Notes: generated from the letters alone by a model not told the origin. 34,071 bases of DNA from Candidatus Heimdallarchaeota archaeon (GCA_019057375.1 DXJF01000046.1:1-34071); one strand, 5' to 3'; shown: positions 23,448-28,759, counted from the stretch's first letter. Made by a program: numbers and translations.

Positions 23448-24698
23448 TCACTTCAATTTCTCAACAATTGGCAATGAAATCTCCCATTTAGATGCATCGA
23501 AAACCGCACCTAAAAATGTGGAATCTTCAAACATAATTCTATTACCTAGTTCATCATACAAGCTGATTGATAATTTTCCTAGATTTTCAAGACGTTTCAA
23601 TACTTCTCTGGGTAAAATATTGTAAGCTAAAATACCTCTTAGAATTGCACCGTTTTCTCGTTTTTGTAGAAATGAGAAGATTACATCTGAGTTACTAAAA
23701 CTCTCTCTAATCCGTCTGTAATTTGCGGTTGTTAATCCAGAGGGACCAGGTTGAATTAGGAAAAATCCTCTAGTAGCTCTAGTTTTTAATGGAAAACTAT
23801 CTGCTTTATCAATTTTTGCTAAGAGATGGGATAATTCAGGATTATTGTCAAAGACATCAAAACTAATGAGTCTGCAAATTCCTCTAGCATCTTTGAAAAT
23901 TCTCAGGAAATTACTTTGATCAACTTGGTAAAATTCTGAAGGCTGTTGAAGACCAATGATAAAATCTGCGATTAGATTTGCTTCTCGTTGGATAAAAGTA
24001 GCTAATATTTCTTCTGAATCTTTGTTTGGGTTACTTTTGATGAGTTTTTCATCATCAATAAGAACATAGGGAAGATGATTCTTCTGAGATTTTCTTGAGA
24101 GACCATAGAGAAATGTCATAACAGAAAATTCGTTTATGATATTTTTTTCAGCAATAGGTAAGTGTACAAACATGACTGGTTGTTTATCAGAATTCAAGAT
24201 ATAGAGGGCTATTTCTTCAAAAAGACCTAAAACAAATGCATTATTTTCTGGAAAAAGAAAGACTAATGATTTGTTCTTGATTATTTTATCAACATAAGAA
24301 TTAATTCTTTCTTCATTTGCTTTATACCACTTCTTTCCTTGAAAGAAAGTCATTTCTTCTTCTGAGAGAGGGGGGAGTTCAATTAAGGGGAGTTGACTAT
24401 AGACATCTGAGTTTCCAGAAGGAGCTGTAATAACAAGTGAAGAGGGAAGTTGATTATTGAATCTTTTCTTAATACTCTTAAGAATGTTCAAACCATAATT
24501 TTCACCAAAAACTAATCCTATAGGTGATTCTTTTATATCTCCTTCAATAAATAGTGTTTCAGAAATTTCACATCCTTTCAGTTCTTTATCACTTATAATA
24601 TTCGAATGGTCAAATTTGTATAAGCCATTGAACAAGACTGGGTATTCATCAACTGATTTTTTCCTACCTTTACTAAAAATAGAACGGATCCATGACAT
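23448..24698 (-). CDS. Degenerate tubulin/FtsZ-fold protein (probable pseudo-GTPase), paralog of 27620..28759
   Basis: Colinear similarity to the 379-aa protein: PVMFVHLP/PTVIFVLP, PYVLIDDEKLIK/PIILFDNEKLLK, KDARGICRLISFD/KDARGLGIIISLD, TRATRGF/TRAKLGY, ILRGILA/TIRGVLT. GGGTGS is absent. The start at ATG 24698 (MSWIRSIF) is preferred over the listed 24710. Confidence 0.65.
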   Translation of the reverse strand: MSWIRSIFSKGRKKSVDEYPVLFNGLYKFDHSNIISDKELKGCEISETLFIEGDIKESPIGLVFGENYGLNILKSIKKRFNNQLPSSLVITAPSGNSDVYSQLPLIELPPLSEEEMTFFQGKKWYKANEERINSYVDKIIKNKSLVFLFPENNAFVLGLFEEIALYILNSDKQPVMFVHLPIAEKNIINEFSVMTFLYGLSRKSQKNHLPYVLIDDEKLIKSNPNKDSEEILATFIQREANLIADFIIGLQQPSEFYQVDQSNFLRIFKDARGICRLISFDVFDNNPELSHLLAKIDKADSFPLKTRATRGFFLIQPGPSGLTTANYRRIRESFSNSDVIFSFLQKRENGAILRGILAYNILPREVLKRLENLGKLSISLYDELGNRIMFEDSTFLGAVFDASKWEISLPIVEKLK

Positions 24699-24766
24699 TT
24701 TATGTTTCAAATATATTAGGTTACAATGATTTTTAAGACTTTTCAGCTAGCTACATAAAAAAGAGA

Positions 24767-26191
24767 TTAATTCTCAGTTGATAATGTTTCTTCAACATTT
24801 AACAGCTGAATTGTATGGGTTTTTCCTGAGATTCCTACCATTGATCCAGCTACCAATACAACATTGTCTTTTGCATCAATGTACTTTTCTTTATGAAGTT
24901 TCTTAATTACATTGAATACTAGCTCATCGTAATTATCTTCATACTTATGAAAAATAGGTTTAACACCCCAAAATAACCTTGTTACACGTTTAGTAAATTG
25001 ATTATGAGAAACAGCATAAATAGGTAAATTTTCCCTATTTCTAGAAACCATGCTTGCTGTATATCCAGTCTGAGTAAGAGCAATAATTGCTTTTACTGAC
25101 ATTCTCTTAGCCAACCTAACTGCAGAAATGCCTATTTCATTGCCAATATTAACCTCAGTATTAACTACTAAAGGACGATCTAAAGCTAGATTTTTCTCTG
25201 CTTCTAGAATTATATCCTTCATTATTTTTATAACTTGAAGAGGATGTCTTCCTGTTGCTGTTTCTGCTGATAACATTAGAGCATCTGCTCCATCAAAAAC
25301 TGCATGAGCAACATCGCTTGCTTCAGCTCTTGTTGGAAGGGGTTCTTTTGTCATGGATTCTAACATCTGTGTTGCAACAATAATGGGTTTAGCCAAATTC
25401 ATACCTAGTTGGATTAATTGTTTTTGCAAGACAGGAACCCTAGCAGGCCCAACTTCAATAGCTAAATCTCCTCGTGCAACCATTAAACCATTACTAAAAG
25501 AAGCGATTTCATTTATTGAATCTAGAGGATCTTGATGTTCAATTTTTGCAATGAGTTGAATGTCCTTGTTTGTATTCGATTCAACAATTTCCTTTACTTT
25601 TCTAAGGTCATCCACACTTCGAACAAAGGAGATAAATAGAAAATCAGTTTCCAAATCACAAGCTTTTTTGAGATCTAAGATATCCTTCTTGGTTGGCACT
25701 CTTATTGATAAATTTGCATCTGGAATATTTACACCCTTTCTAGATGAAATTTCACCACCATCCATCACCTTACAAACTATTTCATCATCTGTAATTGATT
25801 CAGTGTTCAATCTAACTAAACCATCATTTATGAAAATAGAAGTATTAATTTTTAGTTCCTTTGTTAATCTAGGATAATTGATTGGAATAAGATCATTTTT
25901 TCCAATTATGTCCCTAGTAGTAAGCTTAACAATTTCATCTCTGTTAAGTATCTTTTTCTCCTCTAACTCCCCTAATCTAATTTTAGGACCACTGATATCT
26001 ATACCAATTGCAAGATCATTGCATAGATTTCTGAGATTATTGAAGGTTTTTTCATGACTTTGATGATTTCCGTGGGAAAAATTCAATCGAGCTAAATCCA
26101 TTCCATTATCAATCATCTTTCTCAGAATATTCTCAGAACTGGATGAAGGACCTATTGTGCAAACTATCTTTGTTAATCTCAATATTATCAA
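24767..26191 (-). CDS. pyk: Pyruvate kinase
   Basis: 'TKIVCTIGP', 'ARLNFSHG', 'DISGPKIRLG', 'IAKIE', 'MVARGDL', 'VATQMLESM', 'PTRAEASDV', 'DALMLSAETATG'. TTG start at 26191 or 26182. Confidence 0.97.
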   Translation of the reverse strand: MIILRLTKIVCTIGPSSSSENILRKMIDNGMDLARLNFSHGNHQSHEKTFNNLRNLCNDLAIGIDISGPKIRLGELEEKKILNRDEIVKLTTRDIIGKNDLIPINYPRLTKELKINTSIFINDGLVRLNTESITDDEIVCKVMDGGEISSRKGVNIPDANLSIRVPTKKDILDLKKACDLETDFLFISFVRSVDDLRKVKEIVESNTNKDIQLIAKIEHQDPLDSINEIASFSNGLMVARGDLAIEVGPARVPVLQKQLIQLGMNLAKPIIVATQMLESMTKEPLPTRAEASDVAHAVFDGADALMLSAETATGRHPLQVIKIMKDIILEAEKNLALDRPLVVNTEVNIGNEIGISAVRLAKRMSVKAIIALTQTGYTASMVSRNRENLPIYAVSHNQFTKRVTRLFWGVKPIFHKYEDNYDELVFNVIKKLHKEKYIDAKDNVVLVAGSMVGISGKTHTIQLLNVEETLSTEN

Positions 26192-26245
26192 GAAGACATG
26201 GAAGTACTAGCATAAAATTCTTACTAACTTCCTAACACTTTCGAA

Positions 26246-27619
26246 ATGATTAAAAGCAAGCACAGACTCTATGAAATTGTTATGGAATCAAATCCTCAAA
26301 AACCCACTTCATTTAAAGCAAAAACTGTTGTTCCTGATGATATCGAAGTTCCAGCGTTTGATTTTGAAAATATGCTATATGAACATTACAAAAAATATCC
26401 AAGAACAGCTGAAATAGTTGAAAATCCAATCTATCTTGAAGCACTAATGAATCCTTTCAAAAGATTCTATCTTGTGCCTACTGCCTTGTTTAAATTAAAA
26501 TTAAATACAATTTTATCTTTGAAATGGAAAGAATTCCTTAAGCTTTGGAGTTATATTGTATTAATGTTTGTTCCAACACTATTGTTTGTTTTGTTGCCAT
26601 TTCAGACAGCGGGGTGGAGATTAACAATTGATATAATATTCAATGTTGGAACACCAATTCTCATAGCAATTTTGCTATCACTGTTTTATCTAAAATATAC
26701 ACATGATGGTTTTCTGAGTTTAACGCTAGCTAAGAGAGTAGAATGGCTAGAAAAACCTGTAAGAGAGTATTATGCAAAATATTACGATAGAAAATTACCA
26801 AAGAACCCACTCATTATTCTTGCAGCTCTTGCAACAGGTATAGGGATACAAATTCCAATGTTAAAGATAGCATTTGCAGGACATCCTGTAGCAGCTGTTT
26901 TTGGAATTATCACCTGTATATTCAGTCCTTTCCTCTATTATATCTTCTTTGTAGCAGTTTATTACATGTTCTTCAATACACGAATTTATTCCAAAATTCT
27001 TAAACCAATTAAGCAAAAAATGGATGTTTATAGAAAAGAATATGGAACTCTTCTAATGAGAGAAAACTATGACATAATTTGGTCTTTAGGAGATAAGTGG
27101 TCAAGAGGAAGATCGATTAGTCAACTAGAAAATATACCAACAGCAGGTATAATATCCACTTTAATAGTCATTATTGCGATGTTTATGGGTAATATAAATC
27201 AGCTAATGTACTCATTTCCCCCTCCTGGAATGCCTACACATAATGTAAATTTCATGTTTCTGAAAGCTGGACAACCCGCAACAATTCTAGTTGTAACTAT
27301 TTCAGCTTTAATTGCTGTACTAATGGTTTTCTACGTAATCCTTCCATTATGGGCTTTCAGTATCAAAGCTAAAAAATTCAAAATTAAAGCACTCATGGAA
27401 TTGGACAATTATATTTTCGCAAATGTAGTAGAATTTGGAGAAAAATATTCAGAAGAAGCAAAGAGAGAAAATGTTACAATGTTACAACTAAGGGAATATG
27501 TAGCTTCAATGAGGATATTTCCAATATCAACGCAGAAATTATTCAAAACAATCATGGTCATTGCTATATGGGTGATAAACATACTCAAAATTATCAGATC
27601 AGTAGGAGGAGGTATCTAA
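26246..27619 (+). CDS. Uncharacterised polytopic membrane protein (about 6-7 TM)
   Basis: 457-aa ORF with multiple hydrophobic helices. Its stop (TAA) directly abuts the ATG of the tubulin-like gene. The start may instead be ATG 26282. Confidence 0.8.
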   Translation: MIKSKHRLYEIVMESNPQKPTSFKAKTVVPDDIEVPAFDFENMLYEHYKKYPRTAEIVENPIYLEALMNPFKRFYLVPTALFKLKLNTILSLKWKEFLKLWSYIVLMFVPTLLFVLLPFQTAGWRLTIDIIFNVGTPILIAILLSLFYLKYTHDGFLSLTLAKRVEWLEKPVREYYAKYYDRKLPKNPLIILAALATGIGIQIPMLKIAFAGHPVAAVFGIITCIFSPFLYYIFFVAVYYMFFNTRIYSKILKPIKQKMDVYRKEYGTLLMRENYDIIWSLGDKWSRGRSISQLENIPTAGIISTLIVIIAMFMGNINQLMYSFPPPGMPTHNVNFMFLKAGQPATILVVTISALIAVLMVFYVILPLWAFSIKAKKFKIKALMELDNYIFANVVEFGEKYSEEAKRENVTMLQLREYVASMRIFPISTQKLFKTIMVIAIWVINILKIIRSVGGGI

Positions 27620-28759
27620 ATGTCTTGGCTTAAAAGAAAAATCTTCCGAAAGAAGATATCTATATCTGTTATAGGTATTGGTAATGCAGGTTGCAAAATA
27701 GGTGAAAAACTTATTCAAGAATTACGTGAAAGCAAAATCACCATAAAATCATTAGCAGTTAATCTGGCTGATAACTTTGAACCAAAAATCGGCAATTTTT
27801 CAGACGACTTCTGGTTTGGATCAAAAGACTTTGTTTCCTCAGATTATGATTTTGAAAAAGCATACAAACAATTGAAAGCTAAAGAGCTGGAGATAAAATC
27901 CAAACTAGAGAGAGTTGTCTTTTACAAACGTGATGAAAGGAAAGATGAAGACGATTTAGCTCTTCACCTAATAATAGGCAGTGGTGGAGGTACTGGTAGT
28001 GCTGGAACCATTATTATTAGCAAGTTATTAGCTGATATAACAGGGGAACCACCAACAGTTATCTTCGTACTACCAGAAAAAGATGAACCTTCACTTGTAC
28101 AATATAATTCTGCTAGAGCTCTACATTACCTCGGATTTGACACACTTGGTCCTCATTGTCCAATCATATTATTTGACAATGAAAAACTCTTGAAACTCTA
28201 TGAAAATGAAAGCATAGAAATAGTTCTGGAAAAAAGCAATAATTTGTTAGCTGAAACCTTCACTACAACTATTCTTTCAGCTCTTCAAGAAAGTACTCAT
28301 GAGGAATTCTTTGCAGATCTAAATGATTTCTTCAAATCATTCTCTAAAGATGCTAGAGGTTTAGGCATAATTATTTCTCTTGATAAGGAATTTGAAACTT
28401 TAGAAAAGGCTCAAAATACAAGATTTTCTGATCTCTTCTTTAATGAATTAGATGAAAGTTCAAGTTTAACAGCTGATGTTACTAGGGCTAAGTTAGGTTA
28501 TTTAGCAATAACAATGCCAACAACTTATCAGTCTACATTTGAAACAAGAAAAATAGTCAAAAAATTCGAAAAAGGAGACATAAAGGTTTCTCTAAATTCT
28601 ATAGAGGAACCAATTTTAACAATTCGAGGAGTGCTCACTGGAATTCATCCCGATTACGTAGAGAGGTTCTGGGAAGTGCTTGAGAAAGGAAGAGATACTA
28701 GAAAGGAAATTATTGAGGTTGAAACAAAGATAAAAGAAACATATATAGAAACCGAGTAG
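27620..28759 (+). CDS. Divergent tubulin/FtsZ/CetZ-superfamily GTPase (379 aa)
   Basis: T1-like 'VIGIGNAGCKIG', tubulin signature 'GSGGGTGSAG', 'IFVLP..DE', 'FDNEKL', and T7-like 'ADLNDF'. No clear T3 GxGxG loop ('FWFGSKDFVSSD'). Confidence 0.85.
   Translation: MSWLKRKIFRKKISISVIGIGNAGCKIGEKLIQELRESKITIKSLAVNLADNFEPKIGNFSDDFWFGSKDFVSSDYDFEKAYKQLKAKELEIKSKLERVVFYKRDERKDEDDLALHLIIGSGGGTGSAGTIIISKLLADITGEPPTVIFVLPEKDEPSLVQYNSARALHYLGFDTLGPHCPIILFDNEKLLKLYENESIEIVLEKSNNLLAETFTTTILSALQESTHEEFFADLNDFFKSFSKDARGLGIIISLDKEFETLEKAQNTRFSDLFFNELDESSSLTADVTRAKLGYLAITMPTTYQSTFETRKIVKKFEKGDIKVSLNSIEEPILTIRGVLTGIHPDYVERFWEVLEKGRDTRKEIIEVETKIKETYIETE

Follow-up and report, generated by a model that had tools for sequence, protein, structure and literature searches.

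A tubulin/FtsZ-superfamily pair with one motif-less member, encoded with a membrane protein in one order of Heimdallarchaeia

Described relatives and the new locus

Among known prokaryotes, Asgard archaea are the ones most closely related to eukaryotes, and their cytoskeletons are studied for the origin of eukaryotic cell architecture, with the focus on actin, ESCRT, FtsZ1/2 and rare true tubulins. Misato, a eukaryotic protein, keeps the tubulin fold after the loss of the canonical GTPase features; we know of no capping or stabilising pseudo-GTPase regulator of prokaryotic tubulin-like filaments. The current study concerns a locus in a 34,071-nt stretch of DNA (DXJF01000046.1:1-34071, assembly GCA_019057375.1; hereafter the window) from Candidatus Heimdallarchaeota archaeon, a member of the Heimdallarchaeaceae (labelled f1). 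The locus encodes a motif-bearing tubulin/FtsZ-superfamily protein (Y), a paralogue of it without nucleotide-binding motifs (X) and a polytopic membrane protein (M). The feature is real and not a product of chance: it is a family-level tubulin/FtsZ variant with a naturally inactivated paralogue, as judged by motifs, and a dedicated membrane partner. New here are the X-M-Y trio, its restriction to one order, its operon form in sister families, the loss of the X motifs in f1 and the deletion of X in the AB_125 subclade. Our literature search, from which subscription journals were mostly absent so that a prior mention is possible, returned no description of the X-Y pair or the trio. The interpretation towards which we lean, with a little better than an even chance of being correct, is a membrane-coupled two-tubulin system in which X would have turned into a non-catalytic accessory partner.

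The comparison with described systems begins with CetZ. Its structures (3zid, 4b45 and 4b46) are the best structural match of the X model, and CetZ2 and CetZ1 are the best sequence matches of Y among solved structures (E 4e-6 and 2e-5); like X and Y, CetZ is encoded on the chromosome, occurs in addition to FtsZ and probably sits at the envelope. The sequences are, however, no more than 11-22% identical, and X and Y differ from CetZ in forming a fixed pair that has a polytopic membrane protein of its own, in their basic N-terminal peptides and in being confined to one Heimdallarchaeia order. TubZ (4ei7, 2xka) is the best sequence-profile match of the X family (E 1.1e-13), with an alignment that extends into the N-terminal and C-terminal extensions, and is structurally tied with CetZ. 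Unlike TubZ, which resides on plasmids and phages with TubR and a centromere, X and Y are chromosomal (two closed chromosomes included), syntenic across the order and flanked by M, a pyruvate kinase (PK) and membrane proteins.

True tubulins are present in about 1% of Asgard genomes, none of them reported there from Heimdallarchaeaceae, and AtubAB is operon-encoded in Heimdallarchaeia (PMC13394414). X and Y resemble alpha/beta-tubulin, BtubA/B and AtubA/B in being co-encoded paralogues between which nucleotide functions are split, with one site or catalytic residue disabled in one subunit. In contrast, both tubulin subunits bind GTP, whereas X has, by its motifs, lost the whole pocket; a membrane-protein gene lies between the X and Y genes, and any X-Y heterodimer is putative. 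Profile searches of all Protein Data Bank (PDB) sequences retrieved TubZ, CetZ and FtsZ and matched no tubulin at E <= 1 for the X family or at E <= 0.01 for the Y family; one beta-tubulin chain (E 0.71) was the only tubulin match of a single-sequence Y search, and in the structural ranking of X tubulins stand below CetZ, TubZ and FtsZ. By these comparisons, X and Y are not bona fide tubulins.

FtsZ1 and FtsZ2 share the superfamily fold, and one canonical FtsZ is encoded elsewhere in the genome. The TIGR00065 cut-off is 295 bits; Y scores 30 and motif-bearing X 31, the window's X has no match and nine Asgard FtsZ controls score 246-410 bits. In NCBIfam, Y has only this sub-threshold FtsZ match. 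An initial reading of the window (the sequence-only reading) had proposed a family distinct from FtsZ, CetZ and tubulins, which holds for FtsZ and tubulins; for CetZ it is a matter of best-hit ranking rather than of a tree, and by that ranking the X/Y branch appears nearest to CetZ and TubZ. We also considered X and Y as a stand-in for a missing second FtsZ. Each of the families f1-f6, three of whose genomes are single contigs of at least 92% completeness, has one canonical FtsZ, and f7 alone has two. A single FtsZ therefore does not go hand in hand with X and Y, and the idea was rejected. Compared with what is generally known of Misato, the sequence context of X is unrelated and Misato has no adjacent active paralogue.

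Two further groups were considered and set aside. Asg.Tub is a 'CetZ-like' Asgard group outside FtsZ, with function-unassigned neighbour genes (Santana-Molina et al. 2023, PMC9871819), and its members, of about 455 aa, come from Heimdall LC-3, B3-JM-08 and Thorarchaeales (PMC9871819). Y is not Asg.Tub: lineages, motifs and C-terminal region are others, and X and Y have no strong match there. FtsZl1 corresponds to Pfam Tubulin_2 (PF13809) and lies in an operon with vWA, OmpA and GTPase genes (Makarova and Koonin 2010); neither X nor Y matches PF13809 at E <= 10, and the gene context differs.

Two paralogues and a membrane protein

Profile, tree and structural comparisons show that X and Y stem from an ancient duplication and form a separate branch of the tubulin/FtsZ superfamily. 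A BLASTP alignment of the two proteins covers 218 residues at 28% identity (Y 145-356 / X 174-375) with an E value of 6e-11 as a single comparison, or about 2e-7 once corrected for a proteome of ~3500 proteins. The family profiles align with 99.9% probability (E 4.3e-32) over 331 columns (X 58-388, Y 13-372). The sequence-only reading had seen colinearity in the C-terminal two-thirds; this alignment runs nearly end to end, and therefore the colinearity is real and extends over the whole length. The shared stretches it had pointed to ('DxEKL(I/L)K', 'KDARG', 'TRA' and 'RG(I/V)L') are all present. In a tree of 20 X, 20 Y and 18 Asgard FtsZ sequences, with no CetZ, TubZ or tubulin included, X and Y together are split from the 18 FtsZ at an SH-aLRT support of 100, monophyly has a support of 83 for X and of 95 for Y, and the family groupings run parallel in both clades. 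The duplication therefore predates the families of the order, and the two genes have been co-inherited.

Y bears every expected motif. T1 reads GIGNAG (residues 19-24), the T4 signature GGGTGS is invariant or nearly so in 28 homologues, the T6 Asn is N187, and the T7 loop ADLNDF, with both acidic residues (D233 and D236), aligns with NVDFAD of the genome's own FtsZ. Y passes Pfam PF00091 (Tubulin/FtsZ GTPase) with 40.8 bits, where the cut-off is 33 (E 3.7e-10), and its homologue in AB_125 is already annotated 'Tubulin-like protein CetZ'. The N-terminal (GTPase) domain of the Y model is confident, with CetZ as its best structural match (E 6e-9), and the model was used for that domain only.

X is the opposite case. 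At T1 it has FGENYG, which aligns to GIGGAG of the motif-bearing X clade and also to T1 of the genome's own FtsZ. At T4, FPENNAF is aligned to G(S/A)GGTGVG in X of the sister families and to GGGTGS in Y, and at T6 D216 stands instead of Asn. The T7 loop, VDQSNF, keeps D260 and has N263 at the position of the catalytic acid, where the pattern is DxxD in Y, DxxE in motif-bearing X and DxxD in FtsZ; the T7 region is still conserved inside the degenerate clade. X matches nothing in Pfam, NCBIfam or PDB sequences, and its motif-bearing relative P0085 does match PF00091 (38.4 bits). An exhaustive profile search for X homologues returned only 33 cluster representatives, in two groups: a window-like group of 414-436 aa without the motifs and a more distant group of 413-454 aa that retains GxGGAG and GxGGTGVG. 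Therefore, degenerate X derives from a motif-bearing protein. The sequence-only reading had recognised this much: a 379-aa protein with GNAG and GGGTGS, a paralogue with FPENNAF(V) in place of GGGTGS and VDQSNF for ADLNDF, and hence a GTP-binding signature beside an apparent pseudo-GTPase, all of which we read in the sequences and alignments.

The loss of the motifs has left the predicted fold of X in place. The AlphaFold2 (AF2) model, built on a 42-sequence alignment, has a predicted local distance difference test score (pLDDT) of 89.3 and a predicted TM-score (pTM) of 0.89. Foldseek retrieves TubZ, CetZ and FtsZ at E values of about 1e-15, and VIA-align gives Z 28.1 to CetZ 3zid (317 residues, rmsd 3.3 A) and 27.3 to TubZ 4ei7, followed by FtsZ (about 24) and tubulins (about 23). 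Both domains are spanned by the matches (305-340 residues with CetZ, TubZ, FtsZ and tubulins, Z 23-28). X is therewith predicted, with high confidence, to have the complete two-domain tubulin/FtsZ fold, on which the sequence-only reading had staked itself beforehand. A pseudo-GTPase is what these observations describe: the predicted fold kept, the motifs lost and purifying selection in force, with the lack of nucleotide binding read from the motifs.

The third component emerged from the contigs that carry motif-bearing X. There, X is followed by a 454-492-aa protein and then by a 370-393-aa protein; the middle one is homologous to M (26% identity over 428 aa, E 4e-25) and the last one to Y over its full length (E 1e-25). 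We classified the open reading frames (ORFs) of 24 loci with HMMs, and wherever no contig end intervenes there is one X, one M and one Y per locus. Colinear X-M-Y genes that abut or overlap are found in families f3 and f4 as well as on three metagenome contigs. In f1, M and Y are still coupled and X is on the opposite strand, either divergent next to M, or past PK (as in the window), or past PK and a gene for an LVIVD-repeat membrane protein. M adjoins Y in every locus examined. These arrangements show that the ancestral unit was a three-gene operon of X, M and Y, and that an inversion in Heimdallarchaeaceae separated X from M-Y and set it before the LVIVD gene. M has about seven hydrophobic segments, and three soluble stretches, approximately residues 40-85, 243-297 and 372-430, are conserved; the protein belongs to no Pfam family, and its look-alikes in the Atlas are unnamed clusters only, none of them informative.

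The trio is confined to one Heimdallarchaeia order, in which it occurs in four families. For the survey we took 83 genomes of the class, together with the remainder of a 400-genome Asgard sample. Strong X hits were obtained in 29/30 genomes of f1 (plus the window's genome), 1/1 of f2, 3/3 of f3 and 12/12 of f4, 46/47 in total, and Y was found in 29/30 of f1, 2/3 of f3 and 12/12 of f4, 44/47 with the window's genome; the f2 contig ends right after X. The single f1 genome without X, which also lacks Y, is a 1.2-Mb bin of 76% completeness. AB_125 belongs to f1, as do the two closed chromosomes of Ca. Heimdallarchaeum. X and Y thus occur together in essentially every genome of the order with either, as the sequence-only reading had suggested a survey might find, and share one operon in the sister families. 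In the other orders of the class and the remaining Asgard sample only weak hits (E 1e-10 to 1e-16) were found, and 9/9 of those scanned are bona fide FtsZ by NCBIfam. One hit in another order, in G052, was set aside: its 4-kb contig with an f4-type X-M-Y is nested in f4 genus g11, the bin has 8% contamination, and the contig is probably misbinned. A contig labelled Candidatus Thorarchaeota (L068, JBHLQZ010000105.1) carries a Y 73% identical to that of the window. Both contigs look like binning or labelling errors and not gene transfer. A 100-aa X 'fragment' in G026 runs into the end of its 4,095-bp contig, and one of the same length in G014 is assumed to be a like contig-end cut; neither was counted as a truncation.

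Table 1. Features of the locus in the window, with positions counted from its first letter; ORFs were called with genetic code table 11
Feature	Position	Strand	Remarks
Y, tubulin/FtsZ-superfamily GTPase, 379 aa	27620..28759	+	Nucleotide and catalytic motifs all present
Y, T4 signature GGGTGS	27983..28000	+	Residues 122-127
Y, T7 loop ADLNDF	28313..28330	+	Residues 232-237
X, pseudo-GTPase candidate, tubulin/FtsZ-fold paralogue, 416 aa	23448..24698	-	Without nucleotide-binding motifs
X, degenerate T1 loop FGENYG	24492..24509	-	Residues 64-69
X, degenerate T4 FPENNAF	24234..24254	-	Residues 149-155
X, T7 loop VDQSNF	23907..23924	-	Residues 259-264; Asn at catalytic-acid position
M, polytopic membrane protein (~7 transmembrane segments), 457 aa	26246..27619	+	Stop abuts Y start
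Pyruvate kinase (PK)	24767..26191	-	Pfam PK and PK_C; neighbour, not claimed as component
LVIVD-repeat membrane protein, 1002 aa	20201..23209	-	Pfam LVIVD, E 3e-9; next gene after X
Double-zinc-ribbon (DZR) membrane protein, 337 aa	28799..29812	+	Pfam DZR, E 1.8e-9; downstream of Y
Coiled-coil protein, 193 aa	29849..30430	-	Weak C-terminal ArsR-type helix-turn-helix (HTH) match, E 0.001
TnpB/OrfB_IS605-type gene, 417 aa	30576..31829	+	Pfam OrfB_IS605 and Cas12f1-like TNB

In the window the starts of X and Y are 2.9 kb apart on opposite strands, as first noted, with PK and M in between. The listed ORF of X opens 12 nt upstream at a TTG (24710), and the ATG, which gives the 416-aa protein, was taken as the start because every homologue begins MS(W/R). 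A T-run past the PK stop and an AT-rich, TATA-like element ~20-27 nt ahead of the ATG suggest that X has a promoter of its own. All four families have loci in which PK adjoins X or X-M-Y, despite inversions around PK; this may simply be ancestral gene order retained. The DZR gene follows Y in most f1 loci and not in f4, its placement being conserved in f1 only. Just past it, in most f1 loci, sits the coiled-coil/HTH gene. In the window a TnpB-type gene lies between that gene and an NTP-transferase gene and looks recently inserted, because the flanking genes are only ~100 bp apart in the close relatives L062 and L041.

Decay, relocation and loss of X

The state of the motifs differs between families. 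In f1, X has lost T1, T4 and T6 and its T7 is mostly DxxN, the catalytic position being N, S or, in genus g5, D; Y is intact throughout. In f4 all motifs of X are intact, with DxxE at T7, and Y has a GxxG variant of T1, keeps the T7 acid and carries GGTG at T4 in some loci and GATG in many, T4 being lost in L006. In f3 X is partly degraded, with GSTG or SIG for GGTG and the T6 Asn gone (loci L046 and L047), and Y has lost T4 and T6; this version of the system may be nucleotide-independent. In f2, T4 of X is intact and Y is not seen at the contig end. With Pfam, Y alone is recognised in f1 and X alone in f4, and for this reason the pairing has probably gone unnoticed so far.

Loss of the motifs is accompanied by a change of rate. 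Between genomes within f1, X is 28-43% identical compared with 56-72% for Y, and the f1 stem branch measures 1.87 for X against 0.99 for Y, whereas within f4 the two diverge at about equal pace. These values show that X evolves about twice as fast as Y, and only where it is degenerate. Measured against five to seven close relatives, dN/dS amounts to 0.18-0.23 in X, 0.13-0.14 in PK and 0.08-0.11 in Y. X is therefore relaxed, yet clearly still selected.

What is kept in X is as informative as what is lost. We compared mean column identity in 16 degenerate and 9 motif-bearing X proteins, for which the whole-protein values are 0.34 and 0.37, respectively. In degenerate X it amounts to 0.35 at T1 (0.64 in motif-bearing X), 0.40 at T4 (0.72) and 0.26 at T5 (0.49). 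At T7 and H8 it is 0.44 (0.55), in the strand after T7 0.51 (0.31), in the C-terminal domain 0.50 (0.34) and in the N-terminal extension, residues 20-52, 0.45 (0.15). The comparison shows that in degenerate X the nucleotide face has fallen to background, and that constraint lies on the C-terminal domain, the T7 side and an N-terminal extension, a new element modelled at pLDDT > 90. These data bear on the view that X is a decaying relic, a redundant duplicate drifting to loss and functionless in this genome. The disappearance of all catalytic motifs, the doubled rate and the outright loss of X in one subclade agree with it. Decay without function is nevertheless very improbable, in the face of reading frames that stay intact (414-436 aa) over genus-level splits at identities down to about 29%, a dN/dS of about 0.2, similar to that of the neighbouring DZR gene, strongly conserved blocks, the newly conserved extension and a confident fold prediction.

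The loss in one subclade is itself instructive for the relation between X and Y. In AB_125 and YT1_002, whose Y proteins share 83% and 78% identity with that of the window and carry all motifs, PK is followed by ~240 non-coding bases (L064 2897-3139 and L065 2908-3154, respectively) and then by the LVIVD gene. X is cleanly absent there, and the rest of the two genomes (G008 and G012) yielded no X either; M and Y are intact, as are the genes downstream. This deletion argues for an accessory role of X and against an obligate heteropolymer in f1, in which X and Y would alternate as in alpha/beta-tubulin, the pocket of X forming a permanent nucleotide-free interface and the Y site cycling GTP. Such a heteropolymer would explain why two paralogues share one operon across sister families, as in BtubAB and AtubAB, and would fit the complementary decay, of X in f1 and of the Y signature in many f4 loci (in L006 it is lost with X intact), together with the one-partner view of Pfam. 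We consider it distinctly unlikely: besides the deletion, the loops of the nucleotide face of X are at the protein's background conservation, unlike what a permanent interface would lead one to expect, in f3 both proteins look degenerate, and Y has, by prediction, everything needed to form a homopolymer.

The relocation of X in f1 raises a different possibility, i.e. that X quit M and Y and now serves the downstream LVIVD protein as a scaffold or adaptor, with the tubulin fold as a protein-binding module. In 14/14 f1 loci with an X the LVIVD gene comes next after it, including those in which both genes have been inverted together, and the relocation coincides with the loss of the motifs and with the new conserved N-terminal extension, absent from motif-bearing X. 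No counterpart of the LVIVD gene lies beside the f4 operons; a conserved 660-671-aa protein with no Pfam family, which follows PK beside X-M-Y there (L004 7603-9585, L006 5419-7401 and L007 6293-8308), was rejected as such a counterpart, having no similarity to the LVIVD protein. The f1 loci, however, keep X close to its old partners: X lies within 0.1-6 kb of M-Y in every checkable f1 genome, and in several of these a divergent intergenic region of ~0.1 kb is common to X and M. In the window 238 bp separate X from the LVIVD gene, and therefore the two are not translationally coupled, and the LVIVD gene is unchanged where X is deleted. Such neofunctionalisation is unlikely in our judgement; the LVIVD protein is best described as a context partner of X and at most a candidate component.

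A proposed membrane-coupled system and its meaning

The sequence-only reading had named a heteropolymer, a cap, a nucleator or a regulator as possibilities, and it is supported in part, by the fold and the co-occurrence. We propose that X, M and Y would cooperate at the membrane, with X as a non-catalytic accessory of Y. Both tubulin-like proteins begin, in all lineages, with short, very basic peptides (+2 to +7) containing bulky hydrophobic residues (Trp, Leu, Ile or Phe). Y would remain a self-sufficient former of GTP-dependent polymers. X would most likely dock its conserved T7 face onto the GTP-bearing end of Y. From this position it could serve as a hydrolysis-free cap or stabiliser of the filament, or connect the filament with other membrane proteins. 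X would accordingly act through its T7/C-terminal side as an accessory, and not as an obligate subunit of a co-polymer. The CetZ1 T7 mutant E218A hyperstabilises assemblies and blocks function (bioRxiv 10.1101/2024.04.08.588506), and provides a laboratory precedent for the role proposed for X.

Several points weigh against this proposal. The premise that X of f1 neither binds GTP nor triggers hydrolysis is read from motifs only. The AB_125 and YT1_002 loci, with X deleted and M-Y intact, make X dispensable for M-Y in at least one lineage. X in f1 stands outside the M-Y operon, always tied to the LVIVD gene, and may have left the system. In the genus that contains Ca. Heimdallarchaeum X retains the Asp at T7, and capping without hydrolysis is therefore not valid for all members. 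The C-terminal domain of the Y model is unreliable (residues 225-344 at pLDDT < 50), and a tubulin/FtsZ fold of that domain is deduced from the alignment of Y to X. The N-terminal peptides were also considered as amphipathic helices, and this was rejected; we call them basic-hydrophobic only, because in helical hydrophobic moment they do not exceed shuffled peptides. Finally, no fused X-Y, X-M or M-Y forms were found among longer proteins in a word-based search, which is weak evidence.

A broader version of the proposal extends to the whole of Heimdallarchaeales: a membrane-coupled cytoskeletal machine of two obligately cooperating paralogues and a seven-transmembrane protein, in which the GTP site would have been given up repeatedly by either subunit, by X in Heimdallarchaeaceae, partly by Y in a sister family and by both in a third. 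We hold it to be possible, though on balance doubtful. If true, it would be an independent prokaryotic replay, within Asgard archaea, of the division of labour between alpha- and beta-tubulin.

Our results add to the Asgard cytoskeleton a tubulin-superfamily system found throughout one Heimdallarchaeia order and tied to a membrane protein, and of which half of the X-Y pair escapes standard annotation. The decay of the GTP motifs lineage by lineage, together with the natural deletion of X, provides a comparative series for studying how a tubulin-like homopolymer might become a system of catalytic and non-catalytic subunits. Should X prove to be a capping or stabilising pseudo-GTPase, it would be, to our knowledge, the first such regulator of a prokaryotic tubulin-like filament.

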